A stretch of DNA of 64,000 nucleotides from NCBI GenBank assembly GCA_948530865.1, contig CAOTKV010000003.1, positions 41,881 through 105,880 of the forward strand. The letters are read 5' to 3'. The stretch comes from an uncultured Clostridia bacterium. Its GTDB lineage: Bacteria > Bacillota > Clostridia > TANB77 > CAG-508. Every line of letters starts with the position of its first letter. The first letter of the stretch is position 1. The notes beneath the pieces were generated by a model that had not been told where the DNA came from, searched no databases, and was given only the letters and a program-made list of their open reading frames with translations. Both the position numbers and the translations under genes were made by a program. Positions 973-54,104 of the stretch are shown here, piece after piece.

Positions 973-1014
973 TTCTTTTTTCCTCTTTTGAAATTTTTCG
1001 ACTGTCCCTAAATT

Positions 1015-4710: not shown

Positions 4711-4726
4711 CTTTACTCCAACAATT

Positions 4727-5689: not shown

Positions 5690-5713
5690 AATATATTTTA
5701 AATCCTCTTTATC

Positions 5714-7966: not shown

Positions 7967-7975
7967 TAAATTCTC

Positions 7976-9718: not shown

Positions 9719-9738
9719 ATTTTATCTCCTTTACAAAG

Positions 9739-10527: not shown

Positions 10528-10539
10528 ACTTTATCCTTT

Positions 10540-11841: not shown

Positions 11842-11855
11842 AATCTACTCCCTTT

Positions 11856-12644: not shown

Positions 12645-12655
12645 TTTTCCTCCAA

Positions 12656-14983: not shown

Positions 14984-14984
14984 T

Positions 14985-16391: not shown

Positions 16392-16394
16392 AAT

Positions 16395-20275: not shown

Positions 20276-21319
20276 TTATAAAATAAAATATAATATTCCA
20301 TAACAAATTGCAGGTATACAACATAAGAAATGTTTAAAAATGCTTTTTATACTTTTATTATAAGCACCATATAATAATCCAAGCACTCCTATTACAATTG
20401 ATGGAAAAGCAACTCCCATAGTTGTTGTAAATACACCTGCCCAAACTACAAGAAATAATGTAATTTTAGTTATTAATTCATCTTCCTTTTTTTCTTCACT
20501 TAAAAACATATAAAATATTAGTGGAATAATTATATTACATAAAACAGCTTTTCCTTGCCAAATTCTAAATAGTAAAAATGAAAATGTTGTTCTTATTGAA
20601 TAATTTCCAAACAAATTTAAAAAGCAAAACAATAACATAAATATAATAGTATTTTTTAAATCTTTATTAAATAACTCATATCCAAGTAATGCATATATTG
20701 AATAAACAATTATTATAAAAATAATCGGTAAGACGCAATGTGCTACAATTGCTGGATGTATATTTATCCAAGAAGACACTATTGCATAATATACTGGAAA
20801 TGGTCCTAATTTATATCTAAGATCATTATGCTCTCCACTTAGTTCACCTGTTGTTGGTGAATATTTAAATAATGTATTTGTTTGAACTGAGGTTGTAGCA
20901 GTTCCAACATAATACGCATCATCATCATCAATATGTGTATTGGTTCCAACATACATATACATTTGAAAAACAATTAATACTAAACAAATTATAGTTAATG
21001 TTTTAGGAATAGTTAACAATACATCAATTATATCCCAAAATATATCTTTAAATCTTTTAAAATTTAGTATTATAGATATTACAGCTAATATTAACAAAAC
21101 TGCAGTATATGTTATTAATAAACACTTATATGAAGTTTTTAAAAATATCATTGGAACTGTAAGAATCTGAGCAACAGTAAATTCAATAATATATCCAATT
21201 ACTAAACCTAATAAAATATTATTTTTCTGTTTATCCCAAAATTTTAATATTAATAAACCTAATAATTCTGGAAGTACTATTAAACATAAAATTGTAATTA
21301 AAAGTTTCATTATAATCAT
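20276..21319 (-). CDS. Polytopic membrane protein with acidic loop motif HIDDDDAYYVG, possible GT-C catalytic half
   Basis: 347 aa with 9-10 hydrophobic helices and an Asp-rich loop after TM4. Confidence 0.5.
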   Translation of the reverse strand: MIIMKLLITILCLIVLPELLGLLILKFWDKQKNNILLGLVIGYIIEFTVAQILTVPMIFLKTSYKCLLITYTAVLLILAVISIILNFKRFKDIFWDIIDVLLTIPKTLTIICLVLIVFQMYMYVGTNTHIDDDDAYYVGTATTSVQTNTLFKYSPTTGELSGEHNDLRYKLGPFPVYYAIVSSWINIHPAIVAHCVLPIIFIIIVYSIYALLGYELFNKDLKNTIIFMLLFCFLNLFGNYSIRTTFSFLLFRIWQGKAVLCNIIIPLIFYMFLSEEKKEDELITKITLFLVVWAGVFTTTMGVAFPSIVIGVLGLLYGAYNKSIKSIFKHFLCCIPAICYGILYFIL

Positions 21320-21323
21320 ACTT

Positions 21324-22676
21324 CTAATATTCTCCTTTATTATTTTCTTCTAGTTTTGGACATTCAGGAATAATATTTGCATGTAATAAAGGTATTGTTA
21401 CAAAGAAAATCATTCCTAAACAATCTGAACCACCTATTGAAAATCTACCTAAAGATTCAGAAAACATGTATATAAAATATGCTACATACATACAAACATA
21501 TATTATTTTATATTTCTTATCTAGTTTTTTTGATTTTATCATTTTTACTAATACAAAAATATATATTGATATAAAATACAAAACTTCTATAATTCCACCT
21601 GATACAAAAAATTCAATATAAGTATTATGAAATTGAGTAACCTTCATATTAGCATTTTGTATAGCCTCTACACCTTTAAATCTTCCAGCTCCAAACAATA
21701 CTGTTCCTGTATTTTCATTTGCAACATCTAATGCTACATTCCATATTTTAGTTCTTCCTGTTAATGTTTTTATTGAATCAACTCTTAATAATTTATTTAG
21801 TAACAATTCAGGGTTTATTCTATAAAGTGCAAATATTCCGATTGCGCCCAATACAGCTAATATAGCAATTATAACTATTTTTTGTGATATTTTCATTCTG
21901 TCATTAAATAGTAAATACAATCCTAAAAATAATATTGTAACAATTAATCCTGTTCTTGAAGCTGATAGTACCATATTAAATAAAAATATTAGTATACAAG
22001 CACAATATAATATTTTAAATATCATTTTTTTATTTCTAACTAACAAAATAATGCATGATATTATACATGGAAATAAAAAATAAGCAAATTGATTTTTTTG
22101 AGCAAAAAAGCTTTTTGGTGTATATATTTTTCCTTCAAGCTTAATAATTTTTAATGTTGCTAAAATATCTTGGTAATATAAAATAAAATTAAATACACAT
22201 GCAACTATTCCCATTAAAATTAAACATTTCATAAAATTGTAAATATATTTTTCATCTAAATCCATATTTATTAACAATATAAATAAAAATAGTATATTAG
22301 CAAACTTACAAGGAATATTAAATATATCAAAAAGATAATAATTTCCATTTTTTACATTTATAATTTGTACTATAGACCACATTAAAGTAACTCCAATTAA
22401 TAATGTAAATTCTATAATCATTGCTTTTGAAATTTTTATTTTTTTTATATAAAAGAAAAATAAAATTATAAAACCAGTACCAAATGCTGGTACTAAAATA
22501 TCAGTTCCTGCTGCTTTTGATGTTTTTGTATTATAATTTAATCTAATTAATGTAAAAAAATTTAAAAACACTATTATAAATAAAATTATTGGTAATGCAT
22601 TTTTATTAAAAATTTTACTAAATATATTTTTTCTTGGTTTATCTTGATAGCTATACTCCATTTTTTTCTCCCACAT
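21324..22676 (-). CDS. O-antigen polymerase/ligase family membrane protein (Wzy-like)
   Basis: 450 aa polytopic protein. SASRTGLIV and the loop FHNTYIEFFVSGGIIEVLYF match the Wzy_C-type motif as I recall it. Confidence 0.7.
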   Translation of the reverse strand: MWEKKMEYSYQDKPRKNIFSKIFNKNALPIILFIIVFLNFFTLIRLNYNTKTSKAAGTDILVPAFGTGFIILFFFYIKKIKISKAMIIEFTLLIGVTLMWSIVQIINVKNGNYYLFDIFNIPCKFANILFLFILLINMDLDEKYIYNFMKCLILMGIVACVFNFILYYQDILATLKIIKLEGKIYTPKSFFAQKNQFAYFLFPCIISCIILLVRNKKMIFKILYCACILIFLFNMVLSASRTGLIVTILFLGLYLLFNDRMKISQKIVIIAILAVLGAIGIFALYRINPELLLNKLLRVDSIKTLTGRTKIWNVALDVANENTGTVLFGAGRFKGVEAIQNANMKVTQFHNTYIEFFVSGGIIEVLYFISIYIFVLVKMIKSKKLDKKYKIIYVCMYVAYFIYMFSESLGRFSIGGSDCLGMIFFVTIPLLHANIIPECPKLEENNKGEY

Positions 22677-23881
22677 CCTCTTTTTTTGATACTAATAATA
22701 AAACAATAAACAATAACCATAAAATAATTTTGCAAATCAAATTTGCAATTGTAAATCCTATTAATCCATTTGTTTTGCTTAAACTATATCCTAAAACCGC
22801 AAAAATAGCAAAATAAATTATATATGTAATAACTAATTTATTTGTATTACTGTATTTTAATAATACAGATTTTATAAGAGTTGTTGCTGTTCCAAAAGCT
22901 GTTGTAATTGCAATAGGAAGTATTAAACAAAGCGCCTCACTCATATATTGACTATACAAAATTTTAAGTGCAATATATGTTAATGGAATTGTAATTATTG
23001 TTACAATAATTAATATTGGGATATTTGAAAGTAATGTAAGTTTTAAAATTTTCTTTTTACTATCTTTGCTTCTAGCATTTGATACCCATGATAATATAAC
23101 ACTTGACATTGGATTTGTTATTAAACTTGCAATCTTTGACATTGAGTTTACTGCATAATACACAGAAACAAGACTAGCACCAAACATTGGATAAATCAAA
23201 AACTTATCAAAATAATTCATTAAATTTGTTAAAAGCGAAACAAATCCTAACTGGAAAAATTTTTTTATAGTATTAAACATTTCTACAGTTTTAGAAAGTT
23301 TCATTTTTAAAATATCAGAATTTATTAATGCATAAACTATAGAAACAAACTCTGGTATAAACATTATTAAATATATATTAGAAATATATTTAAATAAAAC
23401 TAAGCTTACAATAACTCCGAACTAAATAAAATAAATTTTGAATAATAACCTTGTTATACTTTTTTTCTAATCTATAAAAACAAGTAGCATATAATCTTAC
23501 ATTCGCCATTAATATTGTTAGTACTAAAAATATGCTTCCTAAAATAGAATATTTTAAAAATATTAATATTGGAAATGTTATTATTGCCACAATTGGAGAA
23601 AGTGTAAGTAAAATTCTTGCAAAGTCTCCAATAATACTTTTTTCTTTATAATCACTATCTCGCACTAATCTTACATTTCCGAGTTCTCCACCAGTAACAT
23701 TGCAAATAACATTTAAAATAGAAATATATAAAACTAAACTTGAATATATTGTATCATCAACAGTTTTAGCAAGTATTGGTAGCAGTACAATTTGTTGTGC
23801 AATTATATAAATTCCAAATCCAATCATATTTAAAATCATATCTGAAAAGAAACTTTTATACTTTTTTAAAAAATTTATCAT
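22651..23881 (-). pseudogene. Wzx-type polysaccharide flippase split into 163-aa and 237-aa ORFs by a frameshift
   Basis: ORF 23390-23881 and ORF 22651-23364 are both all-helical membrane pieces and together total about 400 aa. The second frame stays open upstream to a TAG at 23422-23424. Both frames are therefore open over 23393-23421, as expected for a single indel. Confidence 0.55.
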
Positions 23882-23892
23882 TATCTATCCTT

Positions 23893-25083
23893 TTATTTTT
23901 CTAATATATTTTTAATAATTTTATATGTATTTTTTCTATCAAATTTTTCTTCAGCCAAACATCTATTATTTTTTCCAAGTCTTTCTCTTAAACTTTTATC
24001 TTTATATAACATTTCAATTTTTTCTGCAAGCTCTTCTGGATTGCTTACTTCAACATTATATCCAATTTGATAATCTTCAACTAATTTTCTATATTCTATA
24101 CATTCTTGATTATTTACAACTGGAAGTCCAGCTGCTGCATAATCACCAACTTTATTGATTATACTTTGAGCTGCACCTTTTGTAATTGAATTTACTGCAA
24201 TATCACAAGAACATAATTTACCTATCATTTCATCATAGCTAAGTCTTCCTGTAAATTTACAATTAACATCTTTTTCTTTTCCATAACTTTCAAAAACTTC
24301 TTGAAGTGGTCCATCTCCCATTACAACAAATAAAATATTTGTTAAACCTTTATCATATAAAATTTTTATACTATCTATTACACATTTTATATCATAACTG
24401 TGACCAAGAGTTCCAATATACGCCACTCTTACAACATCATCAAAAGGTACTATTTCAAATTCTTTTTTGGCTTTATCAAATTTTTCTAAATCAGTTCCTA
24501 AAAATACGCTATTTTTTTGTTTATATTTTTTATTCGCTTTTGCAGCTCTATCTGCATATGTATTTGAAACAGCAAATATATAATCTGCTTTTGAATAAAT
24601 ATAATCTGCTGTTTTTTTCATAGGAGCAAAAATTATATCACTAATTATTGGAACAGAAAATACCATTTTAAAAGCTTCTGGCCACAAATCTTGAACATCT
24701 ATTATAAATTCAATATTATTTTTTTCAGCAAACTTTGCCACAACTTTTGCAACATCTAATGAAGGAATTGCACAATAAATACAATTAGGCTTTTCAATTT
24801 GCTCTAAATATTTTTTTACATTTTTAGCAAATATATAATGTGAACGAAATCTTTTTAAAGATACATTTTTCTTATATCCAGGTTCATCTATTAAAGTTAT
24901 TTTATATTCTACATTATAATCTTCATTTTTTCTTTGCTTTTTTTCTCCATGTGAAAAACTTGACGTAATTAATTCTACATCACAGTTTTCTTTATCTAGT
25001 AAATCCAAAATATAAGTAAATCTACTATTTCCATTTTCATTAGGTAGTTTAGTAAAGTTAGCAATTACAAGTATTTTCTTCAT
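23893..25083 (-). CDS. GT4 (GT-B) glycosyltransferase
   Basis: 396 aa. VAYIGTLGHSYD and the C-terminal KVGDYAAAGLPVVN region are typical of GT4. Confidence 0.8.
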   Translation of the reverse strand: MKKILVIANFTKLPNENGNSRFTYILDLLDKENCDVELITSSFSHGEKKQRKNEDYNVEYKITLIDEPGYKKNVSLKRFRSHYIFAKNVKKYLEQIEKPNCIYCAIPSLDVAKVVAKFAEKNNIEFIIDVQDLWPEAFKMVFSVPIISDIIFAPMKKTADYIYSKADYIFAVSNTYADRAAKANKKYKQKNSVFLGTDLEKFDKAKKEFEIVPFDDVVRVAYIGTLGHSYDIKCVIDSIKILYDKGLTNILFVVMGDGPLQEVFESYGKEKDVNCKFTGRLSYDEMIGKLCSCDIAVNSITKGAAQSIINKVGDYAAAGLPVVNNQECIEYRKLVEDYQIGYNVEVSNPEELAEKIEMLYKDKSLRERLGKNNRCLAEEKFDRKNTYKIIKNILEK

Positions 25084-25106: not shown

Positions 25107-26084
25107 TTAAGAGTTTTTTCTATATGCTGGGAAAAATTCTTCATTTTTATCTATGTTCTTTAAAATACACAATTTATCATATATTTCTTGATTCCAAATT
25201 TTTCTTCCTATATAAAAATCTGTATCATAAACTTTAGCAAAATTTTTCTTGAATAAATATAAAGAATCTTCTTCACTATTTGACCTTCCACCACCATGAT
25301 GAATTAATTTATATCCATTTTCTTTTCCCCATAAAGTAACAGCATATCTTAATATATAAGCAGGTGATAAATATAAAAATTCTGTTAAAGTCCCAGATAG
25401 ATGTATGTGAATTATATCTTTATAAGTAAAATATAATCCAGCAGCTATAACTTTATTTTCAAAAATAGCTTCTATAAAAATAATATTACTTTTAAAATAT
25501 TTTAGTAAGTTATTAAAATATTCATCATCAAAATAATAATAATCAGTTGCACTATTTCTATCCATTGTAGAATAATAAATATCTTTAAAAGAATCAATAT
25601 TATCAGGTTTTTGAGTAATTTTATAAGTTACTCCTTTATTCAAAGCTTGTCTTATATTTTTTCTACAACTTTTTCCAAACTGATTTTGAACTGGATCATC
25701 TTCTTGTAATTTAGTAATTAAAGTTTTTCTCATATATTTAGCATTATACATTTTTCCAAAATCTTCATAGTTTTTTACTATTGGATGAAAACGAACAAAT
25801 TCACTTACTATGTTATTTTCTAAACAATACTTTGAAAATTCCTCTTGATATCTTTGGAGCAATTTTTCTTTATCACCAATTAAATTTTCTATAATAGAAC
25901 CACCATATCCATAGGGTGTAACTATATCAAAATATTCTTTTCCTTCTATTTTATCTGGAATTTTTCTTATCAAAAATTGATTTGTAATTTTACCATTTTC
26001 ATCTTTATATTCAAAAATTTCTGCTTTACCGTTTTCTATTTTTTCGTATAATTTTCCATAATTTTCATCAAAATATAAATCCAT
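25107..26084 (-). CDS. FemAB/GNAT-like aminoacyl transferase family protein
   Basis: 325 aa. The C-terminal HHGGGRSNSEEDSLYLFKKNFA resembles the FemAB-family conserved block. Confidence 0.55.
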   Translation of the reverse strand: MDLYFDENYGKLYEKIENGKAEIFEYKDENGKITNQFLIRKIPDKIEGKEYFDIVTPYGYGGSIIENLIGDKEKLLQRYQEEFSKYCLENNIVSEFVRFHPIVKNYEDFGKMYNAKYMRKTLITKLQEDDPVQNQFGKSCRKNIRQALNKGVTYKITQKPDNIDSFKDIYYSTMDRNSATDYYYFDDEYFNNLLKYFKSNIIFIEAIFENKVIAAGLYFTYKDIIHIHLSGTLTEFLYLSPAYILRYAVTLWGKENGYKLIHHGGGRSNSEEDSLYLFKKNFAKVYDTDFYIGRKIWNQEIYDKLCILKNIDKNEEFFPAYRKNS

Positions 26085-26091
26085 ATTTCTC

Positions 26092-27141
26092 CTAACTGAT
26101 TGTTAAAAATTCTATAATTGTCTCAATGTATTCTGAGATTTCTTTTTTTGTATATCTTTGATCACATATTAAAGATAATTCTTTTTCAAAAACATTATTT
26201 ATTCTTTCTTCTAAAGGCCAATGTATTGGTAAGTAAACTTGTTTTTCTATTAAATATTTCCTTAACTTATCTCTTAAATCATGTTCTAATATTATAGGCA
26301 CAAATAAAAGGCTATCATTTTGATTATAATCTTCTATTAAAAATCTGACGTTTACATTATTTCTTAATTTCTCATATATAATCTTAGCATTTTCTATTCT
26401 TGAATTTACAATTTTATTAATATTAATTCCCATAATTATTTTTAATGACTCTTCATCTATTGAGTAATTTTTATAGTCTTCATCAAGAACTTTTCCGCTC
26501 TGTGCATATTGATTTAAAAACATTTCTTTTGATATATTATTAGTGTTTTCTATATAATCTTTTTTATTTTGCATAGCAGACTTTTTTATATCAATCATCT
26601 TTGCATTAGATTTTAAATTAAGCTCTACTTCAAAATTTGAATTCATATTTACTGCAATTCCACCACTTGCAATTGGCATCCATTTTCTTAAACTTCCAAT
26701 TAAATAGTCGGAATTTTCACTGTATCTTTTACTTGAAAAAATACTATGTGTAATATCTTCAATTACAATTTTTCCTTGCTCTTTAAATTTTTTTATATAT
26801 AAATCCATATTAGTATTAGAATAACCAAAATAATTCATGGCTAAAAATATATCAATGTCAGTTCTAAAATCTATATCATACTTTAAACCTTCATTATAAT
26901 AAACATCATAATATTCAACTTCAATTCCTAAATCAAAAAATGGTTCAGCCATTGAAGAACAACTATATGATGGTAAATATGCTTTTTTTATTTGCTTATT
27001 TTTTAAAATGTTTTCAAGCACATAATATATTGAAGTTCTACCTGATAATGTAAATTTTGTATCCTTTCCAATATTCCAAAATTTTGAATTATCACAATTT
27101 AAACTTTCACTAAATTCCCAAAATTCACTACCAATTTCCAT
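26092..27141 (-). CDS. DegT/DnrJ/EryC1-like PLP-fold protein (second aminotransferase-like gene)
   Basis: 349 aa. It has a GRTSIYYVLE N-terminal region and a candidate PLP lysine in GSLRKWMPIASGG. Confidence 0.55.
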   Translation of the reverse strand: MEIGSEFWEFSESLNCDNSKFWNIGKDTKFTLSGRTSIYYVLENILKNKQIKKAYLPSYSCSSMAEPFFDLGIEVEYYDVYYNEGLKYDIDFRTDIDIFLAMNYFGYSNTNMDLYIKKFKEQGKIVIEDITHSIFSSKRYSENSDYLIGSLRKWMPIASGGIAVNMNSNFEVELNLKSNAKMIDIKKSAMQNKKDYIENTNNISKEMFLNQYAQSGKVLDEDYKNYSIDEESLKIIMGININKIVNSRIENAKIIYEKLRNNVNVRFLIEDYNQNDSLLFVPIILEHDLRDKLRKYLIEKQVYLPIHWPLEERINNVFEKELSLICDQRYTKKEISEYIETIIEFLTIS

Positions 27142-27297
27142 ACTACCTCTATAATTTTTAATTTTAATTATTTAATAATTTTCAAAGAATTGTTTTTTTG
27201 CAAGGCACTTGAAAAAGAAATACCAGAAATGTACTTTGTATATATTGAGGATTTTCTTTTGATAAGTAACGTAGCAAAAGAAAAATTATTTGGAAAT

Positions 27298-27672
27298 TTA
27301 TGCACGCCAGTCGATAAGAGACTCAATAATATTATTAGAAAAACAATAATAATTTTTTTTATCTTTTCTTATCTCATTTTTAAGCTTATCATCATTAGAT
27401 AATAAAATTGAATTTTCTTTTAAAATATCTTTTATATCTTTTCTTTCAATTTCTATTAAATCATTAAATAATAAAATGTCTATTTTATTACTTTTTAAAA
27501 ATTTAAAAACATTTTCTTTATTTTGAGTTAATAAATTAATTTTTATATTTTTATTAACACATTGATATAAATACATCATTACAAAAGTATTTATTTTTTC
27601 TAAATTTTCAAAACAAGTTTCAAAATCAATATAAACTTCTTTATAATCAATTCCGAAGTGAATATTTTCCAA
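27298..27672 (-). CDS. Hypothetical 124-aa protein
   Basis: It overlaps the ATP-grasp 3' end by 26 nt and is followed by a 156-bp non-coding gap. No motif recognised. Confidence 0.4.
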   Translation of the reverse strand: MENIHFGIDYKEVYIDFETCFENLEKINTFVMMYLYQCVNKNIKINLLTQNKENVFKFLKSNKIDILLFNDLIEIERKDIKDILKENSILLSNDDKLKNEIRKDKKNYYCFSNNIIESLIDWRA

Positions 27673-28573
27673 AGAACTGTTTATCTGCCTCTATTCTTAT
27701 ATCATTAAATGTTATTTCTACATCTTGACCTGCAAAATCTTTTAAAGCAATTAATGGCAAGTTAACATCTAAACATCTGCTTAAACTAAATGCCCCAGGA
27801 AGCCTTGTGCTTATTTCCAACAATTTAAATTTTCCATTTAAATCTTTTTTTATTTGAAAAAACCAAAATCCTCTAAATTCAATTTCTTTATTTAAAGATT
27901 CTGCTATATATTTTATTTCATCTGAAAGTTCAATTCTTCTTGCGTGAACATCAATTCCAGCAAGCATTCTATCAGCTTGTCTTGGATTACAAAATAGCAA
28001 TTTTCTATCTTTATTTGTGAAACAATCTACTGTAACTTCATCTCCTGGCAAATATTCACATATTATCATATCTTGCTCTTTAGCATAAAGTTCTAATTCT
28101 TGATTATTATTAACTTTATATGCATGTCTTCCTCCCTGATCGTCATCTTTTTTTACAAAAACAGGGAATTTATCAGCTTTATCTTTTTTATAAATTTCAG
28201 GAATAAAATTGTAAGCTTTCATTTTTTCATATGTCTTGCTTTTATATCTGCATAATAATGAAGTTTCATAATTAGAACATACTATTACAGCATTAATTCT
28301 ATCTTTATTTTTTTGCAAGAACAATGCTAAATCTTCATGTGTAGCAATAATAAATTTAAAATCATATTGCTTTATTTTTTCATTTAAAATTTCTATAAAT
28401 TTTTCATCTTTAATATTTGGAATATCATCAATATAATTTTTATAAACATATATCCCATGGTTTTTATTTATTGAAGCACCCCAAAGTTCAAACTCATCAT
28501 TATATCTTAAAGACATATTTATATCAGTTGAAGCTAAAGTTCCACAGTTTAATACTAACACTCTTTTTTTCAT
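27647..28573 (-). CDS. ATP-grasp ligase
   Basis: 308 aa. FVKKDDDQGGRHAY (glycine-rich loop), ICEYLPGDEVTVDCF and LLEISTRLPG are typical ATP-grasp blocks. Confidence 0.75.
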   Translation of the reverse strand: MKKRVLVLNCGTLASTDINMSLRYNDEFELWGASINKNHGIYVYKNYIDDIPNIKDEKFIEILNEKIKQYDFKFIIATHEDLALFLQKNKDRINAVIVCSNYETSLLCRYKSKTYEKMKAYNFIPEIYKKDKADKFPVFVKKDDDQGGRHAYKVNNNQELELYAKEQDMIICEYLPGDEVTVDCFTNKDRKLLFCNPRQADRMLAGIDVHARRIELSDEIKYIAESLNKEIEFRGFWFFQIKKDLNGKFKLLEISTRLPGAFSLSRCLDVNLPLIALKDFAGQDVEITFNDIRIEADKQFFGKYSLRN

Positions 28574-29208
28574 TATTGTTCCCCTTTATTTTTTAACTGA
28601 TTTTTTCTATATTCATCAAAATCTATAGTTTTTCCAGTTCCTCTTGTTACTACTCCATCTTTTTTTACTACCTTATAAAACGTTTTAAAAAGAATTTTTA
28701 AATCATTTATAAATGTTATATTATTTACATATTTAATATCATACGCAAAACGTTCTTCCCAGTTTAAAGTATTTCTACCATTTATTTGAGCAAGACCTGT
28801 TAAACCTGGTCTAACATCATGTCTATGTCTTTCTGTTTCATTATAATATGGCAAATAGCATACGGCAAGCGGTCTTGGACCTATTAAACTCATTTCACCT
28901 TTTAAAATATTTACAAGTTCTGGCAATTCATCTAAACTAGTTGCTCTTAAAATTTTTCCAAATTTAGTAAGTCTTTCAGAATCTGGAAGTAATTTACCAT
29001 TTTCATCTTTTTTATCAGACATACTTCTAAATTTATATAATCTAAATATCTTACCATCTTTTCCAGGTCTATCTTGTTTAAAAATTACAGGACTTCCTAG
29101 CTTTATTCTAACTAAAATTGTAACAATTAATATTATTGGTGATAAAAAAATTAATCCAAACAAACTTATTAAAATATCTAACAATCTTTTTACATATTTT
29201 TTATACAT
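28573..29208 (-). CDS. Small monotopic phosphoglycosyl transferase (PglC/WcfS-type 'bacterial sugar transferase')
   Basis: 211 aa. One N-terminal re-entrant helix, then KQDRPGKDGKIFRLYKFRSM, DELPEL, SLIGPRP. Confidence 0.85.
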   Translation of the reverse strand: MYKKYVKRLLDILISLFGLIFLSPIILIVTILVRIKLGSPVIFKQDRPGKDGKIFRLYKFRSMSDKKDENGKLLPDSERLTKFGKILRATSLDELPELVNILKGEMSLIGPRPLAVCYLPYYNETERHRHDVRPGLTGLAQINGRNTLNWEERFAYDIKYVNNITFINDLKILFKTFYKVVKKDGVVTRGTGKTIDFDEYRKNQLKNKGEQ

Positions 29209-30333
29209 TTAAAATAATTCCTTAACTATTTTTATAACTCTATTTATATCTTCATCAGTCATTTTGGTATCTGAAGGCAAGCAAACACCTCTATTAAATA
29301 AGTCTTCACCAATGCTTATTCCAGAATCATTATGATTTATAAAATCATATTTTTCAAAAATTGGTTGCATATGCATTGGTTTCCATACTGGTCTTGATTC
29401 TATATTTTCTTTTTCTAAGCTTTCTATTATATCTAATGGTTTAACTTTAGAGTTTGGTTTTAAAGTTAATGCTGATAACCATTGATTTGATCTTTCATCT
29501 TCATTTTCTGGCATCATTTCTATTTCTTCTATATCTTTAAAGCCATCTTTATATTTATTGAATATCTCATTTTTCTTAATTATTCTTTGTTCTAAAACTT
29601 TCATTTGACCTCTTCCAATTCCAGCCAAAACATTACTCATTCTATAATTGTAACCAATTTCTGAATGTTGATAATGACGTGCTGGATCTTTACTTTGAGT
29701 TGACCAAAAACGAGCTTTATCTATTTTTTCTTTATCATTAGAAATCAGCATTCCACCACCTGTTGTTGTTATTATTTTATTTCCATTAAATGAAAGTGCA
29801 CCAATCGTCCCATATGTTCCTAAATATTTTCCATTATATATTGTTCCAAGCCCTTCAGCAGCATCTTCTAATATTGGAACATTATGTTTGTTGCAAATTT
29901 CTAAAATTTTTTCCATTCTTGTAGCTCTTCCATATAAATGAACAACAATAACTGCTTTTGGTTTATATTTTTCAAATGCTTTTTCTAAAGCTTTTGGACT
30001 CATATTCCATGTTTGATATTCAGAATCTATAAATACTGGTGTTGCATTTTGATAAATAATTGGATTTACACTTGCTGAAAACGTTAAATCAGATACAAAA
30101 ACTATATCATCTTTTTCAACTCCTAATACTTTTAATCCTAAGTGAATTCCAGCTGTTCCACTAGCTACAGCTACACTTGCTTTTACTCCTAAATATTCTC
30201 TTACAGATTCTTCAAATTTATTCAAATTTTCACCAACTGTTGATAACCAATTTGTATCAAAAGCTTCTTTTATGTATTTTTCCTCATATTTTTCCTCTGA
30301 CATATGAGGTGATGCTAAATATATTTTTTTCAT
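29209..30333 (-). CDS. DegT/DnrJ/EryC1/StrS-family sugar aminotransferase (PglE-like)
   Basis: 374 aa. ASGTAGIHLGLKVLG and SFNGNKIITTTGGGM (PLP lysine) are present. Confidence 0.85.
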   Translation of the reverse strand: MKKIYLASPHMSEEKYEEKYIKEAFDTNWLSTVGENLNKFEESVREYLGVKASVAVASGTAGIHLGLKVLGVEKDDIVFVSDLTFSASVNPIIYQNATPVFIDSEYQTWNMSPKALEKAFEKYKPKAVIVVHLYGRATRMEKILEICNKHNVPILEDAAEGLGTIYNGKYLGTYGTIGALSFNGNKIITTTGGGMLISNDKEKIDKARFWSTQSKDPARHYQHSEIGYNYRMSNVLAGIGRGQMKVLEQRIIKKNEIFNKYKDGFKDIEEIEMMPENEDERSNQWLSALTLKPNSKVKPLDIIESLEKENIESRPVWKPMHMQPIFEKYDFINHNDSGISIGEDLFNRGVCLPSDTKMTDEDINRVIKIVKELF

Positions 30334-30346
30334 AATTCCTCCAAAA

Positions 30347-31426
30347 TTAATTTAAAATTTCTTTTAAACATATCTGTTGCTCTTCATTTTCAAAATCCCA
30401 TGTGTGAAATGCTCCACCTAAGCAATATTTCCAATCCTCACATTTATCACATTTTCCACATTTAAATTTTTCTAAATTTCTAAAAAATTCAAATTTATTT
30501 TCCCAAATTTCAACAAAATTATCTTTTCTAACATTTCCCTGTATCAATTCTGGTCTTCTTTCAACATTAGGACATACAAAAATATCGCCATTATAAAGAA
30601 TGCTTCCAACTGTAAGTCCTGTATAGCACATATACATATTAGTTCTTACTTCTTTTTCATATTTTATTCCTAAAAAATGTGCACAACCATATGTAACTTC
30701 AAACTTTGATTTTTTTCTTTTTTCTTTTATAAAATTGATTAAATATTTATAATCTTCTGAATCTAACTCTAAATTTTTATTATCTTTAGCTCGTCCAATT
30801 GGATCTATATTTAGAATTCTCCATGAATCTATATTTAATTCTTTTACAACTTCATAAATTTTCTCTAGTTCATTAATGTTAGACTTATTAGTAACTGTAG
30901 TTATTTGCAATATAACATTCAAATCCGATTTTTTTACTTTTTTTATATTTTCAATAATTTTTGAATAGCAATTTAATCCTCTAAATTTATTGTGAGTTGA
31001 TTCTAAACCATCAATACTTATTGACATTGTAGAAATTTCAGTTTCTTTAAAACTCTTTATTATTTCATCTGTTATTAAAATTCCATTTGTTGTAATACTC
31101 CAATAAAAACCAAGTTGTTTTGCATATTTCATAACTTCAAATAAATCTTTTCTAAGCAAAGGTTCTCCACCAGTAACATTAATTTGTATTTTTCTTGCAT
31201 CATATTTTTCAGATATTGATTTTAAAGTATTTTCTATTTCTTGAGTTGTCAATTCAGCATTTATATTAACATTCTCTCCTGCTCTACTTCCACAATGTTT
31301 GCAATTAGCATTACATCTTAATGTCGCTTCCCAAAATAAATTTGTTAATCTAGGTTTTCTTGAAAGAACCTCTTTTTCTTTGTAAACAGCTTCAGCCTCA
31401 CCATATTTAATTATTTCTTTGAACAT
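30347..31426 (-). CDS. Radical SAM enzyme with C-terminal SPASM/twitch-like Cys cluster
   Basis: 359 aa. CNANCKHC is the CxxxCxxC motif, and GGEPLL is present. The C-terminal region is CYTG...FVCPN...CGKCDKCEDWKYCLGG. Confidence 0.8.
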   Translation of the reverse strand: MFKEIIKYGEAEAVYKEKEVLSRKPRLTNLFWEATLRCNANCKHCGSRAGENVNINAELTTQEIENTLKSISEKYDARKIQINVTGGEPLLRKDLFEVMKYAKQLGFYWSITTNGILITDEIIKSFKETEISTMSISIDGLESTHNKFRGLNCYSKIIENIKKVKKSDLNVILQITTVTNKSNINELEKIYEVVKELNIDSWRILNIDPIGRAKDNKNLELDSEDYKYLINFIKEKRKKSKFEVTYGCAHFLGIKYEKEVRTNMYMCYTGLTVGSILYNGDIFVCPNVERRPELIQGNVRKDNFVEIWENKFEFFRNLEKFKCGKCDKCEDWKYCLGGAFHTWDFENEEQQICLKEILN

Positions 31427-31436
31427 ATCTACCTTC

Positions 31437-31625
31437 TTAAAATAATGTTATTAAAAGTATATCATATAATGTTTTTGAATTTTCCTTGTTTGAAGATACT
31501 TCATTTATTACACTTTTTTCCATAATTGCTCCATAATAAGTTGTACTAAAAACTGGTAAAACTTTAAATAATATTCCTGAAAAAAATACTACAATAGCTA
31601 CTGCTACTTTTTTCATATGTTTCAT
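31437..31625 (-). CDS. 62-aa small membrane protein
   Basis: SD AAGGAG lies 8 nt upstream of the ATG. It has an N-terminal TM (VAVAIVVFFSGILFKVLPVF). It is wedged 10-12 nt from both neighbours inside the operon. Confidence 0.5.
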   Translation of the reverse strand: MKHMKKVAVAIVVFFSGILFKVLPVFSTTYYGAIMEKSVINEVSSNKENSKTLYDILLITLF

Positions 31626-31637
31626 AATAAATTCTCC

Positions 31638-33524
31638 TTATTTTTTATTAACTTCTTCTGGTTCTTTAAAGGTTGGAACAATTTGCTTAAAGGTTTCTTT
31701 AATTTCTTTATTATCTGTATCATCTTTTTCTAATAATTTATTTAATGAATTTAATTTTTCTTGAACTTCTTGCATTGTTATATCTAAAGGTTCTGCAACA
31801 AAAATTTTATTATGTGCAGTTTTTTCTAGTCCTTCTTCTCCCATTAAAAGTTCTTCATAAAGCTTTTCACCAGGTCTTAATCCAGTAATTTTTATTTCAA
31901 TATCTTCATTTGGTATATATCCTGAAAGCTTTATTAAACTTACCGCTAAATCATAAATCTTAACAGGTTCCCCCATATCTAAAACAAATATTTCTCCACC
32001 ATTTGCATAGGTCATTGCTTGCAATACAAGTTCAACTGCTTCTGGTATTGTCATAAAAAATCTTGTTATATCTTTATGAGTTACTGTTACAGGTCCACCT
32101 TCTGTAATTTGTTTTTTAAATAAAGGAACAACAGACCCATTACTTCCTAAAACATTTCCAAAACGAACTGCTGCAAATTCTGTTTTACTAACTTTATTTT
32201 TTGCTTGTACTATCATTTCACACATTCTTTTTGTAGCTCCCATTATGTTTGTTGGATTTACTGCTTTATCTGTTGAAATTAAAATAAATCTTTTTACTCC
32301 AAATTCATCACAAGCATTTGTAACATTATAAGTACCAAATATATTATTTTTTATAGCTTCTAATGGACTATTTTCCATTAGTGGTACATGTTTATGTGCA
32401 GCCGCATGAAATACTAAATATGGTTTATATTTTTCAAAAATTTGTCTTAATCTTTTTTTATCACGAACACTGGCAATTATTGCATCAATTTCTATTTTAG
32501 GAAATTTATATTTTAACTCTTGTTCAATGTCATATAAATTATTTTCATAAATATCTAACATTACAAGTTTTTGTGGTTTATATTTTGTTATTTGACGACA
32601 TAATTCTGAACCAATAGAACCTCCTGCACCAGTAACTAAAATTACTTTATCTTTTATTAAATTTTCAATATTTTCATTATCTAATTTTACAGGATCTCTT
32701 CCTAAAATATCTTCAATTTCAACATCTCTTAAATTATCAAATATTTTCTTATTTCTAATTATTTCTTTCATTCCTGGAAGAATTCTTACTTTAGCATTTG
32801 TTGCTTGGCAAATATTTAATATTTCTTTTTTATTTTGACTATCTATATTAGCAATTGAAAAGAAAATTAAATCAATATTTTTTTCCTTGCAAATTTTTAT
32901 AATGTCATTTCTATTTCCAATTATTTTAACACCTGATACTGTATAATTTAGTCTTTTTTGATTATCATCAATAATTCCGATAATATTATAATTTTCAGTC
33001 ATTTTTGTGTGAATAGTTTTTATTATTTCATGAGCAGCATTTCCAGCACCTATTATAAGTAAATTTTTTTGATTTGTCTTATTTACATTTATTCCTCTAT
33101 TTACAATATCATTAACTAATATGTACCTTATTACTAACCTATATGCTATCATCATAAGAGAAATAAATATACCAGCTAGAATAATTAATTTAGTTCTCTC
33201 TAGCATGAATATATGAAAAATTTTTCTTACAATAGCTATTATTATAGATGATACCATACAAAGCATAAAGTATATAAAATAATCTTTTCCATCTTCATAT
33301 CTTATGATTGCCTTATATCTTCCAGCTAAATGAAAAACAATTTGGTACACTATTACTGAAACAATTATTGTTTGAGTAAGTCTTCTTACATAATACGCTT
33401 CTAATTTAAATACAGAATCAGTAATAAGCACAACTCCCAAATAATACGCAAAAGCAATACACAAAATATCTAATATAATTAATATAAAACTTCTATATTT
33501 ACTTAATTTTTTTATTTTCTCCAT
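31638..33524 (-). CDS. CapD/PglF/WbpM-type membrane-anchored UDP-sugar 4,6-dehydratase
   Basis: 628 aa. Four N-terminal TMs, then two Rossmann regions (LLIIGAGNAAHE, VLVTGAGGSIGSEL) and FHAAAHKHVPLME. Confidence 0.85.
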   Translation of the reverse strand: MEKIKKLSKYRSFILIILDILCIAFAYYLGVVLITDSVFKLEAYYVRRLTQTIIVSVIVYQIVFHLAGRYKAIIRYEDGKDYFIYFMLCMVSSIIIAIVRKIFHIFMLERTKLIILAGIFISLMMIAYRLVIRYILVNDIVNRGINVNKTNQKNLLIIGAGNAAHEIIKTIHTKMTENYNIIGIIDDNQKRLNYTVSGVKIIGNRNDIIKICKEKNIDLIFFSIANIDSQNKKEILNICQATNAKVRILPGMKEIIRNKKIFDNLRDVEIEDILGRDPVKLDNENIENLIKDKVILVTGAGGSIGSELCRQITKYKPQKLVMLDIYENNLYDIEQELKYKFPKIEIDAIIASVRDKKRLRQIFEKYKPYLVFHAAAHKHVPLMENSPLEAIKNNIFGTYNVTNACDEFGVKRFILISTDKAVNPTNIMGATKRMCEMIVQAKNKVSKTEFAAVRFGNVLGSNGSVVPLFKKQITEGGPVTVTHKDITRFFMTIPEAVELVLQAMTYANGGEIFVLDMGEPVKIYDLAVSLIKLSGYIPNEDIEIKITGLRPGEKLYEELLMGEEGLEKTAHNKIFVAEPLDITMQEVQEKLNSLNKLLEKDDTDNKEIKETFKQIVPTFKEPEEVNKK

Positions 33525-37279: not shown

Positions 37280-38707
37280 TTATATTAAAATTATTGGATT
37301 AACAGTAATTCCACCAATTAATGCAATTATACATAAGAAAAATAGTAATGTTTTTTTATAATTTTCATCATGAAATATCAAGAATAAAAATGATATTAAA
37401 CATGCTTCAATCATAAATAACATCATATAGTTTACTGTTCTAAAGGCTTGAGGATATCCTATAAATCCAATTACAAGCATTAATAAAACAACAATTCTCA
37501 TTGCTGATGTTACTGAAAATAACTTTTTATCAATATGTTTTATCATATAAAACATTATATATACACTTGCAAGTGATACTCCTGCAACGCCTCTTGAAAG
37601 TGATACATTTGAAAATAATGTAATTTTATTTATTGTATCAGGTAATCCTGACATACAAAATACTGTTTCTAAAACAGAAACAATTATAATAGGTAATAAA
37701 AATTCTATATGATCATCATTTTTATACATATAATATAATGCAATTAACATTGGTACTGGAAATGCTGATAAAAAACTTCCAAACAATGCTGTTTCTTCTC
37801 CCAAATTATTAAATGGTAAAAGTATATTATATAAATATGAATATAAAATAGATAATCCTCTTGTTTCATTTTCTATTACATCATTATAATTAAATGGAAT
37901 TTTCATTCTTAAAATAACTGCACAAACAATTGAAATTACTGTTGCTCCAACAAGTAATCCTCCATTATTTTTTAAAGCTTTTCTATTTTTTATTAATATC
38001 CAAATAATTAATGCAATAAATACATATCCAAATGATATAGCATATCCAGTAAATGTAAATGCATATGCCACAATACTTATCATCATTCCTATAACATACC
38101 AGATTTTATTTTTACTATTTTCTTGATTTAATAATTTATTTAAAAGAACAACAATTAATTCTCCCCATATTAATGAATCTATTTTATTAAAATTCCATTG
38201 AACTGCACCAGAAAATACTACTACAATGGTTCCTATTATTGACATTCCCTGACTTTCATCTGTAATTACCTTAAATAATTCATATGTCACAAGCAAAAGT
38301 CCATAAAATTTCAAATTCCACCATAAAGATAAGGTTGTACTGGTATTTAATAGCCATTCTTGAATTCCAATATTACTTCGTAAATATCCAATAAATGTAG
38401 ATAAAACTATCATGACAAATGATATCTTAAATCTATTTTCTACTATTATTGTATATAATTTTTTAAATCCTATTACAAAATGTAAACCTATAAATATATA
38501 TATTCCACAAAGTGTTATGCTTCTTGGAATTGAAAATGCATTTCCTGAACTTACAAAAATAAATTCTGTAATACCTGCTAAAAGTATCGAGATTAATACT
38601 AATATAAAAATTTTTCCTTTTTCTTTTTCTGTTAATGTCTCATGTTTTATTTGCATTTGTTCTATTTCTTTTTTGTTCTTTTTGTTTCCCATTTTATACT
38701 CCTTCAT
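37280..38707 (-). CDS. Polytopic membrane protein of unknown function
   Basis: 475 aa. It has a charged N-terminal tail followed by about 12 hydrophobic helices. It sits between glmU-like and the rml genes, so a glycan polymerase or GT-C role is possible but unsupported by motifs. Confidence 0.5.
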   Translation of the reverse strand: MKEYKMGNKKNKKEIEQMQIKHETLTEKEKGKIFILVLISILLAGITEFIFVSSGNAFSIPRSITLCGIYIFIGLHFVIGFKKLYTIIVENRFKISFVMIVLSTFIGYLRSNIGIQEWLLNTSTTLSLWWNLKFYGLLLVTYELFKVITDESQGMSIIGTIVVVFSGAVQWNFNKIDSLIWGELIVVLLNKLLNQENSKNKIWYVIGMMISIVAYAFTFTGYAISFGYVFIALIIWILIKNRKALKNNGGLLVGATVISIVCAVILRMKIPFNYNDVIENETRGLSILYSYLYNILLPFNNLGEETALFGSFLSAFPVPMLIALYYMYKNDDHIEFLLPIIIVSVLETVFCMSGLPDTINKITLFSNVSLSRGVAGVSLASVYIMFYMIKHIDKKLFSVTSAMRIVVLLMLVIGFIGYPQAFRTVNYMMLFMIEACLISFLFLIFHDENYKKTLLFFLCIIALIGGITVNPIILI

Positions 38708-54095: not shown

Positions 54096-54104
54096 GTTTA
54101 CCTC

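Follow-up and report, generated by a model that had tools for sequence, protein, structure and literature searches.

The window, by which we mean the whole stretch of 64,000 nucleotides that was analysed, contains a minus-strand operon that runs from 33524 to 23893. We interpret it, with moderate confidence in the explanation as a whole, as a cell-wall sugar operon of gut Clostridia in which two co-transcribed but separate systems are found. One includes an ATP-grasp ligase, a 349-aa protein and a Fem-like transferase, which together form a widespread, conserved and uncharacterised module right behind PglC; this module probably decorates an amino sugar with acyl or amino-acid groups. The other consists of a radical SAM/SPASM enzyme, which is probably a protein or peptide maturase, and the adjoining protein with a Tyr-Gly (YG) motif on which it would act.

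All of the open reading frames (ORFs) listed in an earlier, sequence-only reading of this DNA are present on the minus strand at the positions given there. The intergenic spacing ranges from -26 to +25 bp, with a sole exception of 156 bp ahead of the 349-aa ORF. When the ORFs were compared with profile families, the assignments as PglF, aminotransferase, PglC, ATP-grasp, Fem-like and GT4 proteins held, while those of the 124-aa, 349-aa and 62-aa ORFs had to be revised. For all genes, including both halves of a split ATP-grasp gene, dN/dS is 0.06-0.33 relative to a 91% identical sister locus.

The core pathway

The operon starts with a PglF/CapD-type membrane-anchored UDP-GlcNAc 4,6-dehydratase (31638-33524, 628 aa; PF02719, E 1e-128), in which TDK at residue 418 and NIMGATK form the TDK...MxxxK motif, a signature of PglF/WbpM (PMC8987622). 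It is accompanied by a LegC/PglE-like sugar C4 aminotransferase of the DegT family (29209-30333, 374 aa; PF01041, E 9e-99). The top NCBIfam model of this protein is LegC TIGR04181, at 381 bits and thus under the cutoff of 420, and its PLP lysine, as read from the motif SFNGNK, is K186. Next comes a small monotopic phosphoglycosyl transferase of the PglC type (Bac_transf; 28573-29208, 211 aa; PF02397, E 5e-64). The last gene encodes a GT4 glycosyltransferase (23893-25083, 396 aa; PF00534, E 3e-16); its family had been correctly recognised, but the gene lies beyond the interval of 25107-33524 to which it had been assigned.

These family assignments and motifs agree with the proposal of a bacillosamine-type branch. 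Because the PglF, aminotransferase and PglC families are well characterised, the first two enzymes can be expected to make a UDP-4-amino-4,6-dideoxy-HexNAc, which the third then loads on undecaprenyl phosphate.

The operon was also said to have no PglD-like acetyltransferase, and this is borne out: neither a PglD/NeuD-type nor a PseH-type N-acetyltransferase was found among the scanned ORFs, a set made up of almost every ORF of 120 aa or longer in roughly the first 57 kb of the 64-kb window (not, for example, 53703-54899). The sole left-handed beta-helix domain in this set belongs to GlmU (38720-40003; 552 bits, over its cutoff). A membrane acyltransferase (Acyl_transf_3) is encoded at 16395-17969.

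The claim that the acetyltransferase has been replaced is only partly sustained. In 33 related loci, a PseH-like GNAT lies between the PglC gene and that of the 349-aa protein, and in the window this slot is indeed taken by the ATP-grasp. Nevertheless, the complete module coexists with a genuine acetyltransferase of the NeuD/PglD family in locus L091 (178 bits, cutoff 160.8) and with a GNAT in L171. Since acetyltransferases stand beside the module in some related loci, “addition” fits better than “replacement”.

A conserved module behind PglC

The two types of amide-forming enzyme that had been noticed after the core, ATP-grasp and Fem-like, are both supported by Pfam and NCBIfam matches. The ATP-grasp ligase is encoded by a split gene, of which the N-terminal 308 aa (27647-28573; PF15632 and PF02655) align at 76-78% identity with residues 1-306 of proteins that are intact, at 424-433 aa, in L090 and L093. 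The 124-aa ORF (27298-27672), previously taken as a separate component, is the C-terminal alpha/beta domain of the same protein, as revealed by a change of tblastn frame at the junction; a 1-nt insertion near 27650-27660 makes it read as a gene of its own. This insertion is common to L001, L002, L083 and L084 and is not present in L090 and L093. The 124-aa ORF has a dN/dS of 0.33, and its frame is open in both lineages. Members of this ATP-grasp family are nearly always 420-424 aa long and, among those listed, more than 95% are intact at about 420 aa. When P0241, the intact homologue from L090, was modelled, the Foldseek matches of the structure were 2pn1, PylC, L-amino-acid ligases and biotin carboxylase. 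For the C-terminal domain, alternating beta/alpha elements are predicted, with the motifs VYIDFETCF and ISNDD, as well as DxDT in divergent members.

The 349-aa protein (26092-27141) has no match in Pfam or NCBIfam profile scans, and thus the description of it as a second DegT-like PLP protein stands by predicted fold and not by sequence. Its AlphaFold2 model (pLDDT 90.5) has a type-I aminotransferase fold, and the top Foldseek matches are sugar aminotransferases (E of about 5e-13, TM 0.6-0.67); the profile-to-profile similarity between its family and DegT is negligible. A homologue search returned 1,176 sequences, so that its family, for which there is no Pfam model, exceeds 1,000 members. 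Two residues, D129 and K153, are invariant in this family, which suggests that the protein may bind PLP. The Fem-like protein (25107-26084, 325 aa; Acetyltransf_6/FemAB-like) is a FemX-like transferase of the GNAT fold that matches the FemX model NF047883 (E 2e-13). The profile of its family, in which an F-K motif is invariant, finds Weissella FemX 4ii9 (E 2.3e-19) as well as 6snr, 1lrz and 9wqw.

The surroundings of these genes were compared in 80 metagenome loci with relatives of the 349-aa protein, 45 of them long. PglC is present in all 45 long loci, and DegT and GT4 in 40 each, the usual order being PglF-DegT-PglC-[GNAT]-349-[ATP-grasp or Fem]-GT4. In 56 of 68 loci, the gene directly after that of the 349-aa protein encodes a ligase of the ATP-grasp or Fem-like type, and GT4 follows the ligase in 51. 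The order seen in the window, ATP-grasp-349-Fem, recurs in L083, L090, L091, L093, L169-170 and L173-174, and L171-172 have the same genes with a GNAT inserted after the ATP-grasp. The module is also found after the phosphoglycosyl transferase of a UDP-GalNAcA locus with TviB- and TviC-like enzymes; thus, the acylated group may not always be a 4-amine.

We infer the substrates of all three enzymes. Activation of a free carboxylate would be the task of the ATP-grasp, and the Fem-like enzyme would add an aminoacyl group, for which aminoacyl-tRNA is the probable donor. The amine that is acylated would most likely come from the 349-aa protein, which could convert either a second 4-keto sugar molecule or a 2-oxoacyl group, attached beforehand by the ATP-grasp, into its amino form. 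Such a role of the 349-aa protein in creating the acceptor amine is suggested by the retention of its gene both in loci where the only ligase is Fem-like and alongside a PseH-like GNAT or a PglD-like enzyme, which could cap the first amine. Together, the three enzymes would decorate an amino sugar with amide-linked groups ahead of chain extension by GT4, this sugar being the lipid-linked primer or a residue next to it. The expected product is a Gram-positive cell-wall glycan with an amino sugar that bears an acyl, aminoacyl or dipeptidyl group.

The radical SAM enzyme and its partner

The radical SAM/SPASM enzyme (30347-31426, 359 aa) has Radical_SAM and SPASM domains without an N-terminal recognition domain, and its cysteines are at 38, 42 and 45, with eight more in the C-terminal part. 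Its gene is under purifying selection (dN/dS = 0.14). The best NCBIfam model is TIGR04133 (297 bits, cutoff 425), which NCBIfam pairs with TIGR04134, a “radical SAM-associated putative lipoprotein”. On TIGR04103, which we take to be linked to PlpX, it scores 124 bits against a cutoff of 725, and no DesII or BtrN model is among the best 25 of its 75 NCBIfam matches. In a sample of 79 loci with homologues that are 52-65% identical, sugar genes are nearby in none. Instead, an adjoining same-strand ORF for a secreted or membrane protein with the motif YG[PVIMA] is present in 68 of the 79, while this motif occurs in 10% of background ORFs. Such a context marks the enzyme as a probable protein or peptide maturase and speaks against a DesII-like function, which had been suggested on the logic of DesI/DesII.

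In the window, the corresponding partner is the 62-aa ORF (31437-31625), with a signal-like N-terminus and the motif TTYYGAIMEK. A profile built from 54 partner proteins matches it over the leader and YG motif (E 4.6e-4). The ORF had been described as a membrane peptide and is indeed present; however, the DNA alignment with the sister locus, where the partner has its full length of 108 aa, indicates that it derives from such a protein by an in-frame deletion of 138 bp in which both transmembrane helices were lost. Moreover, the residue after YG is Ala, which is not seen in any of 82 motif copies in 56 small partner proteins.

The radical SAM gene is separated by gaps of 10-13 bp from its neighbours, between the dehydratase and aminotransferase genes. 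In the related operons L169-170, the pair is missing, and PglF and DegT are 60 bp apart. L091, a more distant glycan locus, likewise has a radical SAM homologue between PglF and DegT, although the two proteins are not sisters in the tree and the order of the pair is opposite. The radical SAM gene and the 62-aa ORF would therefore be a mobile two-gene pair inserted at this point. The most likely target of the enzyme is the YG motif of the partner, which would be modified ahead of export, and the enzyme takes no part in sugar chemistry. As the same intergenic position is occupied in two lineages, the pair could still be functionally tied to the glycan locus.

Alternative explanations

The module could have another function. 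In C. jejuni HS:2, PLP enzymes act together with an ATP-grasp amidoligase and a phosphatase (PMC11800397; PMC11800379), Cj1437 and Cj1436 making serinol phosphate and ethanolamine phosphate. By analogy, the 349-aa protein would make a small phosphorylated amine, the ATP-grasp would couple it to a carboxylate of the glycan, and the C-terminal domain, whose motifs resemble those of haloacid-dehalogenase phosphatases, would dephosphorylate it. The occurrence of the module in a locus that makes UDP-GalNAcA is consistent with this. We consider it rather unlikely, as the scanned ORFs include neither a sugar dehydrogenase nor anything else that could provide a sugar carboxylate, the phosphatase reading has no Pfam or PDB sequence match, and the 349-aa gene is kept in loci with only a Fem-like ligase, where a donor of small amines would be useless. 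It is also unlikely that the 4-amino group of the primer stays free, as in zwitterionic glycans of the AATGal type, and that the module acts on a different residue of the repeat or on some other polymer of the envelope. Free UDP-FucNAc4N is used in the WcfR route (PMC11257628) and, given its coexistence with PglD-type and GNAT enzymes, the module is not tied to an unacetylated primer. By contrast, it is always contiguous with PglC and then GT4, and one example of a read-through PglC-ATP-grasp fusion is found (P0244).

Decay of the branch, with loss of its decorations, appears decidedly unlikely. Two 1-nt frameshifts and the 138-bp deletion fall within 10 kb, so that the ATP-grasp, a membrane protein of about 410 aa encoded near the operon and the radical SAM partner might all be pseudogenes, and more than 95% of the listed members of the ATP-grasp family are intact. 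Nevertheless, the lesions are common to a lineage whose operon proteins are 85-95% identical, and the frame of every fragment is open despite a genomic GC content of 25%, with dN/dS of 0.11-0.33. On our main reading, too, the function of the pathway may be compromised in this organism, given that both the ATP-grasp and the 410-aa membrane-protein genes are frameshifted. Finally, it is very improbable that the radical SAM enzyme modifies the sugar, be it by DesII-like deamination or by some other radical tailoring step, together with both aminotransferase-like proteins. Its tight position between the dehydratase and aminotransferase genes, the selection on its gene and the similar arrangement in L091 would be explained in this way. 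Nonetheless, sugar genes are missing around all 79 of the homologues compared, the YG-motif protein is its conserved neighbour and was carried along into both glycan loci, and nearly identical operons do without the gene. In addition, it is a full SPASM protein whose best family is paired with a putative lipoprotein, neither DesII nor BtrN is among its 25 best NCBIfam models, and the DegT protein reaches only 157 bits on the DesI model (cutoff 650). A maturase of the YG-motif protein thus remains our preferred reading of the enzyme.

Comparison with known systems

The core resembles PglF/PglE/PglD/PglC of C. jejuni, which have EpsC/EpsN/EpsM/EpsL as counterparts in B. subtilis. It shares with the C. 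jejuni system the TDK...MxxxK dehydratase, the DegT C4 aminotransferase and the small monotopic phosphoglycosyl transferase, all three encoded in a single operon, and differs from it by the lack of the PglD hexapeptide acetyltransferase and by the ATP-grasp, PLP-fold and Fem-like proteins after PglC. As for the radical SAM gene, it adjoins an aminotransferase gene as in DesI/DesII, which catalyse the C4 deoxygenation of desosamine; however, the enzyme has a SPASM domain and comes from a family that accompanies YG-motif proteins and not sugar genes, and the aminotransferase is LegC/PglE-like rather than DesI. A SPASM enzyme beside a small secreted, lipoprotein or membrane partner is also the arrangement of TIGR04133/TIGR04134, although the window enzyme scores below the TIGR04133 cutoff. 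Spliceases such as PlpX act at XYG motifs (PMC11414181), and Tyr-Gly motifs are present in the partners described here; these are, in contrast, membrane-anchored and not Nif11 or NHLP precursors, and their modification is predicted.

FemX of Weissella viridescens and FemX/FemA of S. aureus are aminoacyl-tRNA-dependent peptidoglycan branching enzymes. The C-terminal GNAT domain of the Fem-like protein is homologous to FemX (E 2e-19), with the F-K motif conserved, and the FemX acceptor, an amine of a nucleotide- or lipid-linked cell-wall precursor, parallels the putative acceptor in the window. Unlike FemX, the gene is in a polysaccharide operon and not in a peptidoglycan context, and only its C-terminal half aligns. 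In the glucuronamide genes of C. jejuni HS:2, which encode the PLP enzymes Cj1436/Cj1437, the ATP-grasp amidoligase Cj1438C and the phosphatase Cj1435, a PLP enzyme and an ATP-grasp decorate a glycan after sugar incorporation, as they would in the window, possibly there with a phosphatase-like domain. By contrast, no source of uronic acid is seen among the scanned window ORFs, the Campylobacter system has no Fem-like enzyme, and Cj1438C has been described as TupA-like, whereas the ATP-grasp of the window matches ATPgrasp_Ter and PylC-like structures.

A precedent for the acylation of UDP-4-amino sugars by an ATP-grasp already exists in Bacillus cereus ATCC 14579, in its UDP-yelosamine pathway (Pdeg, Pat and Pyl; Hwang et al. 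2014, cited in PMC11257628). Going by the published description, Pyl is alike in being an ATP-grasp that N-acylates a UDP-4-amino-6-deoxy-HexNAc, and in being encoded beside an aminotransferase and a small phosphoglycosyl transferase. Relative to Pyl as described there, the ATP-grasp of the window has an extra C-terminal domain of about 120 aa and is always accompanied by the 349-aa and Fem-like proteins.

A candidate module for amide formation in polysaccharide operons

The new element in this operon, as in other polysaccharide operons of gut Clostridia, is a constant partnership between an ATP-grasp protein, an unrecognised family with an aminotransferase fold and a Fem-type protein. The radical SAM enzyme of the same operon and a small secreted or membrane partner with a YG motif, encoded beside it, form a separate, uncharacterised and widespread system. 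The sequence-only reading, which had proposed an amino-acid- or dipeptide-acylated 4-amino sugar as the lipid-linked primer, was largely right in what it observed, and an amide-decorated 4-amino sugar is a reasonable idea.

All of the ORFs that had been listed are present as tightly packed genes (33524 to 23893, minus strand). Profile-HMM assignment with Pfam and NCBIfam confirmed the PglF/CapD, radical SAM/SPASM, DegT, PglC-type, ATP-grasp, Fem-like GNAT-fold and GT4 proteins, the GT4 gene falling just outside the interval 25107-33524 in which it had been placed, and returned no family match for the 62-, 124- and 349-aa ORFs. The first enzyme is a PglF-type UDP-GlcNAc 4,6-dehydratase (PF02719, E 1e-128). 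It carries TDK at residue 418 and MGATK, and TDK...MxxxK is the signature of the PglF/WbpM type tabulated in PMC8987622. The DegT protein is a C4 aminotransferase (PF01041, E 9e-99) closest to LegC/PglE, with a score of 381 bits against the LegC model, just under the cutoff of 420. The 211-aa PglC-type protein is a small monotopic phosphoglycosyl transferase (PF02397, E 5e-64).

The absence of a PglD-like hexapeptide acetyltransferase from the operon is borne out, as no N-acetyltransferase of the PglD/NeuD or PseH type was found in it or in the other window ORFs scanned. Three candidates for a hidden enzyme were set aside. The PglD_N match in PglF is merely the N-terminal Rossmann-like region; the hexapeptide protein encoded at 38720-40003 proved to be GlmU, the sole left-handed beta-helix domain among the ORFs scanned; and the Acyl_transf_3 protein at 16395-17969 is a membrane acyltransferase, taken to be of the O-acyltransferase type. 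The flanking ORFs scanned between 43 and 57 kb are housekeeping genes or lack a Pfam match.

The three genes of the module (ATP-grasp, 349-aa protein and Fem-like protein, placed right after PglC) were surveyed across 80 metagenome loci that encode a relative of the 349-aa protein (35-75% identity). The usual order is PglF, DegT, PglC, often a GNAT, the 349-aa gene, an ATP-grasp or Fem-like gene, and GT4; the best NCBIfam match of this GNAT is PseH, at 69 bits (cutoff 93). In 56 of 68 loci, the gene directly 3′ of that for the 349-aa protein encodes an amide ligase, and some loci contain tandem double 349/ATP-grasp pairs. The arrangement seen in the window, with an ATP-grasp gene of ~420 codons, the 349-aa gene and the Fem-like gene, recurs in the sister locus L083 and in the related loci L090, L091, L093, L169-170 and L173-174. 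The same module genes are found in L171-172, where the ATP-grasp is followed by a GNAT and the 349-aa gene is split. L091 encodes a true NeuD/PglD-family acetyltransferase between PglC and the ATP-grasp. The module of L173-174 lies behind a phosphoglycosyl transferase gene, and the TviB- and TviC-like genes of that locus would produce UDP-GalNAcA. Because of these two settings, the module is portable, tied to the priming transferase and able to coexist with an acetyltransferase. To say that the acetyltransferase has been replaced is too strong, since L091 has the module plus a NeuD/PglD-type enzyme.

Proteins of the module

The 349-aa protein had been called a second DegT-like PLP protein; it is DegT-like by predicted fold but not by sequence. 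There is no PF01041 match, nor any Pfam or NCBIfam match at E 0.01; hhalign of the family against the DegT protein of the window gives a probability of 0.6%, and the profile reaches WecE at E 0.042 only. Searches for a sequence proof with phmmer, hmmsearch and hhalign gave marginal matches only; the fold search alone was decisive. The AlphaFold2 model (pLDDT 90.5) finds the sugar aminotransferases 7b0m, TlmJ, WecE, PseC and PglE as best Foldseek matches (E about 5e-13; TM 0.6-0.67; 12-15% identity), other type-I PLP enzymes being slightly worse. The 1,176 homologues returned show no Pfam domain among those listed. Invariant in the family are D129 (in IEDITHS) and K153 (in SLRKW...SGG), which, by motif comparison rather than superposition, would be the PLP-binding Asp and Lys of DegT enzymes.

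For the Fem-like protein, homology to the catalytic GNAT domain of FemX is clear from the profile match to 4ii9 (E 2.3e-19). Its family has an invariant F278-K279 that aligns to the F-K of FemX, where the lysine is catalytic.

The 124-aa ORF, previously counted as a separate component, represents the end of the ATP-grasp gene, put out of frame by a frameshift. As an independent small protein it is rejected, as it matches the C-terminal ~119 residues of intact ATP-grasp homologues. These are 424-433 aa long in L090, L093 and L091; identity to the 308-aa ORF of the window is 76-78% over their first ~306 residues, and identity to the 124-aa ORF is 62-66% over their last ~119. The family as a whole (698 matches) is almost always 420-424 aa. 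A single additional base at about 27650-27660 in the window gene recurs in independent assemblies from this organism and in the sister lineage, and both halves keep open frames, with dN/dS of 0.11 and 0.33. The predicted model of the intact protein (pLDDT 90.8) resembles 2pn1, PylC, L-amino-acid ligases and biotin carboxylase. The C-terminal domain (27298-27672, minus strand; homologues in alignment A6) is predicted to be alternating beta/alpha and carries the motifs VYIDFETCF (DxDT in divergent members) and ISNDD, which are like those of haloacid-dehalogenase phosphatases. Identity as such a phosphatase, an idea at the level of motifs, found no support in a PDB profile search or in a Pfam search with 13 members. 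One protein cluster from the homologue search, P0244 (640 aa), is a read-through fusion of a PglC-type transferase and the ~420-aa ATP-grasp, which lends weak support, of the Rosetta-stone kind, to a functional link between the two.

The surrounding glycan locus

The operon is held in a glycan locus of ~40 kb, whose closest named relatives are uncultured Clostridia such as Candidatus Scatovivens faecipullorum. The window has a GC content of ~25%, and the minus strand bears nearly all genes. Upstream of the operon, in the direction of transcription, are GlmU, a DUF7657 protein and rmlDACB; downstream of GT4 are a Wzy-type polymerase, DUF6077 and GalE, and beyond GalE an ABC-transporter (Wzm/Wzt) glycan system and large GT2/GT4 fusion proteins. 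Related loci with LytR-CpsA-Psr genes point to a Gram-positive cell-wall glycopolymer.

The ABC-transporter-dependent system (1-17969, minus strand) directly adjoins the Wzy-dependent genes. It includes Wzm (11856-12644, minus strand), Wzt with a Wzt_C domain (10540-11841, minus strand), two GT2+GT4 fusions of ~750-780 aa, several GT2 genes and the Acyl_transf_3 gene. As the Wzm/Wzt system lies beside the Wzy genes, a single 40-kb locus joins two assembly routes and the rml genes. Four genes of the locus are conserved and without known function (7976-9718, 14985-16391, 19511-20263 and 37280-38707, minus strand). Among their products are 580-aa and 468-aa proteins without a convincing Pfam match, a 250-aa ORF and the DUF7657 protein. 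The DUF6077 gene (20276-21319) is found with the module in several related loci. The operon also has a second split gene, represented by ORFs of 163 aa (23390-23881) and 237 aa (22651-23364) on the minus strand. Together these make one multi-pass membrane protein, ~410 aa long in L090, L093 and L169 and possibly a flippase. Its frame shifts near residue 153-156. The sister lineage shares the split, and dN/dS is 0.15-0.17 in the two halves.

The radical SAM enzyme and its partner

The radical SAM protein, of which identical copies occur on metagenome contigs, belongs to a large and well-conserved family (>2,200 proteins at E <= 1e-20, many 57-67% identical; 408 relatives in species-representative genomes). 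In 79 loci of this family, with flanks of up to 10 kb per side where the contig allowed, no homologue (0/79) has DegT, PglF, PglC, ATP-grasp, Fem-like, GT4 or Rml genes beside it. Just one neighbour is conserved, a small ORF on the same strand that directly adjoins the gene of the enzyme. Its products have a signal peptide or lipoprotein signal, one to several [L/K]-Y-G-[V/P/I]-P motifs and, usually, a C-terminus of two transmembrane helices flanking a Lys-rich loop. A neighbour with the YG motif is present in 68 of the 79 loci, against a motif frequency of 10% in background ORFs.

The 62-aa ORF of the operon (31437-31625) is a shortened copy of this partner. A profile of 54 partners matches it at E 4.6e-4, over the leader and YYG, as rank 2 of 317 window ORFs; rank 1 goes to the multi-pass Wzy, where composition bias is high. 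At this position the sister locus, with 91% identity in the radical SAM protein, encodes a complete partner of 108 aa that has two helices; in the 62-aa ORF both helices are gone owing to a 138-bp in-frame deletion. The two frameshifts and the deletion in this organism's copy appear to be tolerated. It was also observed that the DNA around the YG motif is near-identical between the window and L083 (2413-2739), at a synonymous divergence of ~0.3 for the operon, which may reflect strong constraint or recent exchange.

In closely related operons without the pair, PglF and DegT are 60 bp apart. The pair likewise separates PglF from DegT in L091, a more distant glycan locus. There its gene order is reversed and, in a rough neighbour-joining tree, its enzyme clusters with non-glycan homologues, which suggests that the pair was inserted independently twice; a single origin of both insertions is supported by neither tree nor gene order.

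The cysteines of the enzyme are those of a radical SAM/SPASM maturase, namely CX3CX2C at 38/42/45 and eight in the C-terminal part at 248, 267, 285, 323, 326, 329, 335 and 353 (Pfam SPASM, E 3e-7), and the adjacent partner with its conserved motif is substrate-like, as expected of such an enzyme. An N-terminal RiPP recognition element is absent. Because only ~37 residues precede the cluster, the architecture is nearer to that of AhbD or the anaerobic sulfatase maturase. The best NCBIfam model is TIGR04133 (297.5 bits, below the cutoff of 425), and its sister model TIGR04134 is described in NCBIfam as a radical SAM-associated putative lipoprotein. Partners of lipoprotein type match TIGR04134 at E 0.21 only. 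Neither Pfam nor NCBIfam has a model for the YG-motif partners, and no literature was found on TIGR04133, its lipoprotein partner or a YGPP motif.

In loci of the Bacilli type (L035-L062), the pair adjoins a P-loop ATPase of 430-460 aa, which by sequence looks like a conjugative coupling protein, and large YG-repeat proteins. These neighbours suggest that the Bacilli-type pairs are on mobile elements.

Proposed route and alternatives

By family membership, PglF converts UDP-GlcNAc to the 4-keto-6-deoxy sugar, the aminotransferase makes the 4-amino sugar and PglC loads it onto undecaprenyl phosphate. We infer that the module makes two amide bonds on an amino sugar at or beside the primer before GT4 acts, one of them ATP-dependent and the other of the Fem type. 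In the favoured reading, the 349-aa protein would supply the amine that is to be acylated, because it persists where a Fem-like protein is the only ligase, which makes a special carboxylate donor needless, and where the first amine could in any case receive its cap from a PseH- or PglD-like enzyme. This may take place in parallel branches from the PglF product, one with DegT, a capping enzyme and PglC and the other with the 349-aa protein, a ligase and GT4. It may also follow the gene order in a linear manner. In that case, the ATP-grasp would join a 2-oxoacid to the 4-amine of the sugar, as in Pyl, the 349-aa protein would transaminate the 2-oxoacyl to an aminoacyl group while on the sugar, and the Fem-like enzyme would, by analogy, extend the new amine using aminoacyl-tRNA. 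It is rather unlikely that this linear route and a role of the radical SAM enzyme and partner as a widespread, undescribed system for post-translational modification of envelope proteins in gut Firmicutes are jointly true. A serious rival to this reading is the Campylobacter logic, in which a PLP enzyme acts with an ATP-grasp amidoligase and a phosphatase, a precedent described in PMC11800397 and PMC11800379; against it, no source of a sugar carboxylate is visible among the window ORFs scanned.

If an amine is indeed acylated in this way, many uncultured gut Clostridia put acyl or aminoacyl groups on the primer of a cell-wall glycan. The evidence spans hundreds of loci, the 349-aa protein having 1,176 homologues and the ATP-grasp 698, and the use of aminoacyl-tRNA would be widened from peptidoglycan and lipids to polysaccharides. 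The linear route in particular would imply a tRNA-dependent peptide stem whose base is a cell-wall polysaccharide instead of peptidoglycan. Amino-acid-acylated amino sugars occur in bacterial surface glycans, and the module may provide candidate enzymes for them. Setting the radical SAM pair apart averts a wrong annotation of the DesII type and brings to light a system of enzyme and partner that is very common, has a clear candidate target motif and deserves its own study.

Comparison with known systems

The radical SAM enzyme had been likened to DesI/DesII sugar chemistry, which is ruled out by its family and genomic context. It is a SPASM protein with eight C-terminal cysteines and TIGR04133 as best model, and its 25 best NCBIfam matches include no DesII model. 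Nor is the aminotransferase of the DesI type for dTDP-sugars, as it scores 157 bits with the DesI model TIGR04427 (cutoff 650). In the 79 loci, the radical SAM family shows no conserved association with deoxysugar genes. The outcome that the sequence-only reading had named as fatal to this part of its proposal, a maturase unrelated to sugars, is the one that we judge to hold.

The XYG motif of substrates of PlpX-type spliceases is also present in the partners, with the consensus [LK]-Y-G-[VPI]-P, and reads YYGA in the window copy. With TIGR04103, a model that we take to be linked to PlpX, the enzyme scores 124 bits (cutoff 725). Spliceases, which excise tyramine, provide the only radical SAM chemistry known at X-Tyr-Gly (PMC11414181) and, by analogy, the system might be splicease-like, with tyramine excised at Tyr-Gly.

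For the module, an ATP-grasp enzyme that N-acylates UDP-4-amino sugars has already been described, namely Pyl of B. cereus (as cited in PMC11257628). Here too, as in the Pyl setting, an ATP-grasp fold is encoded beside a C4 aminotransferase and a small phosphoglycosyl transferase.
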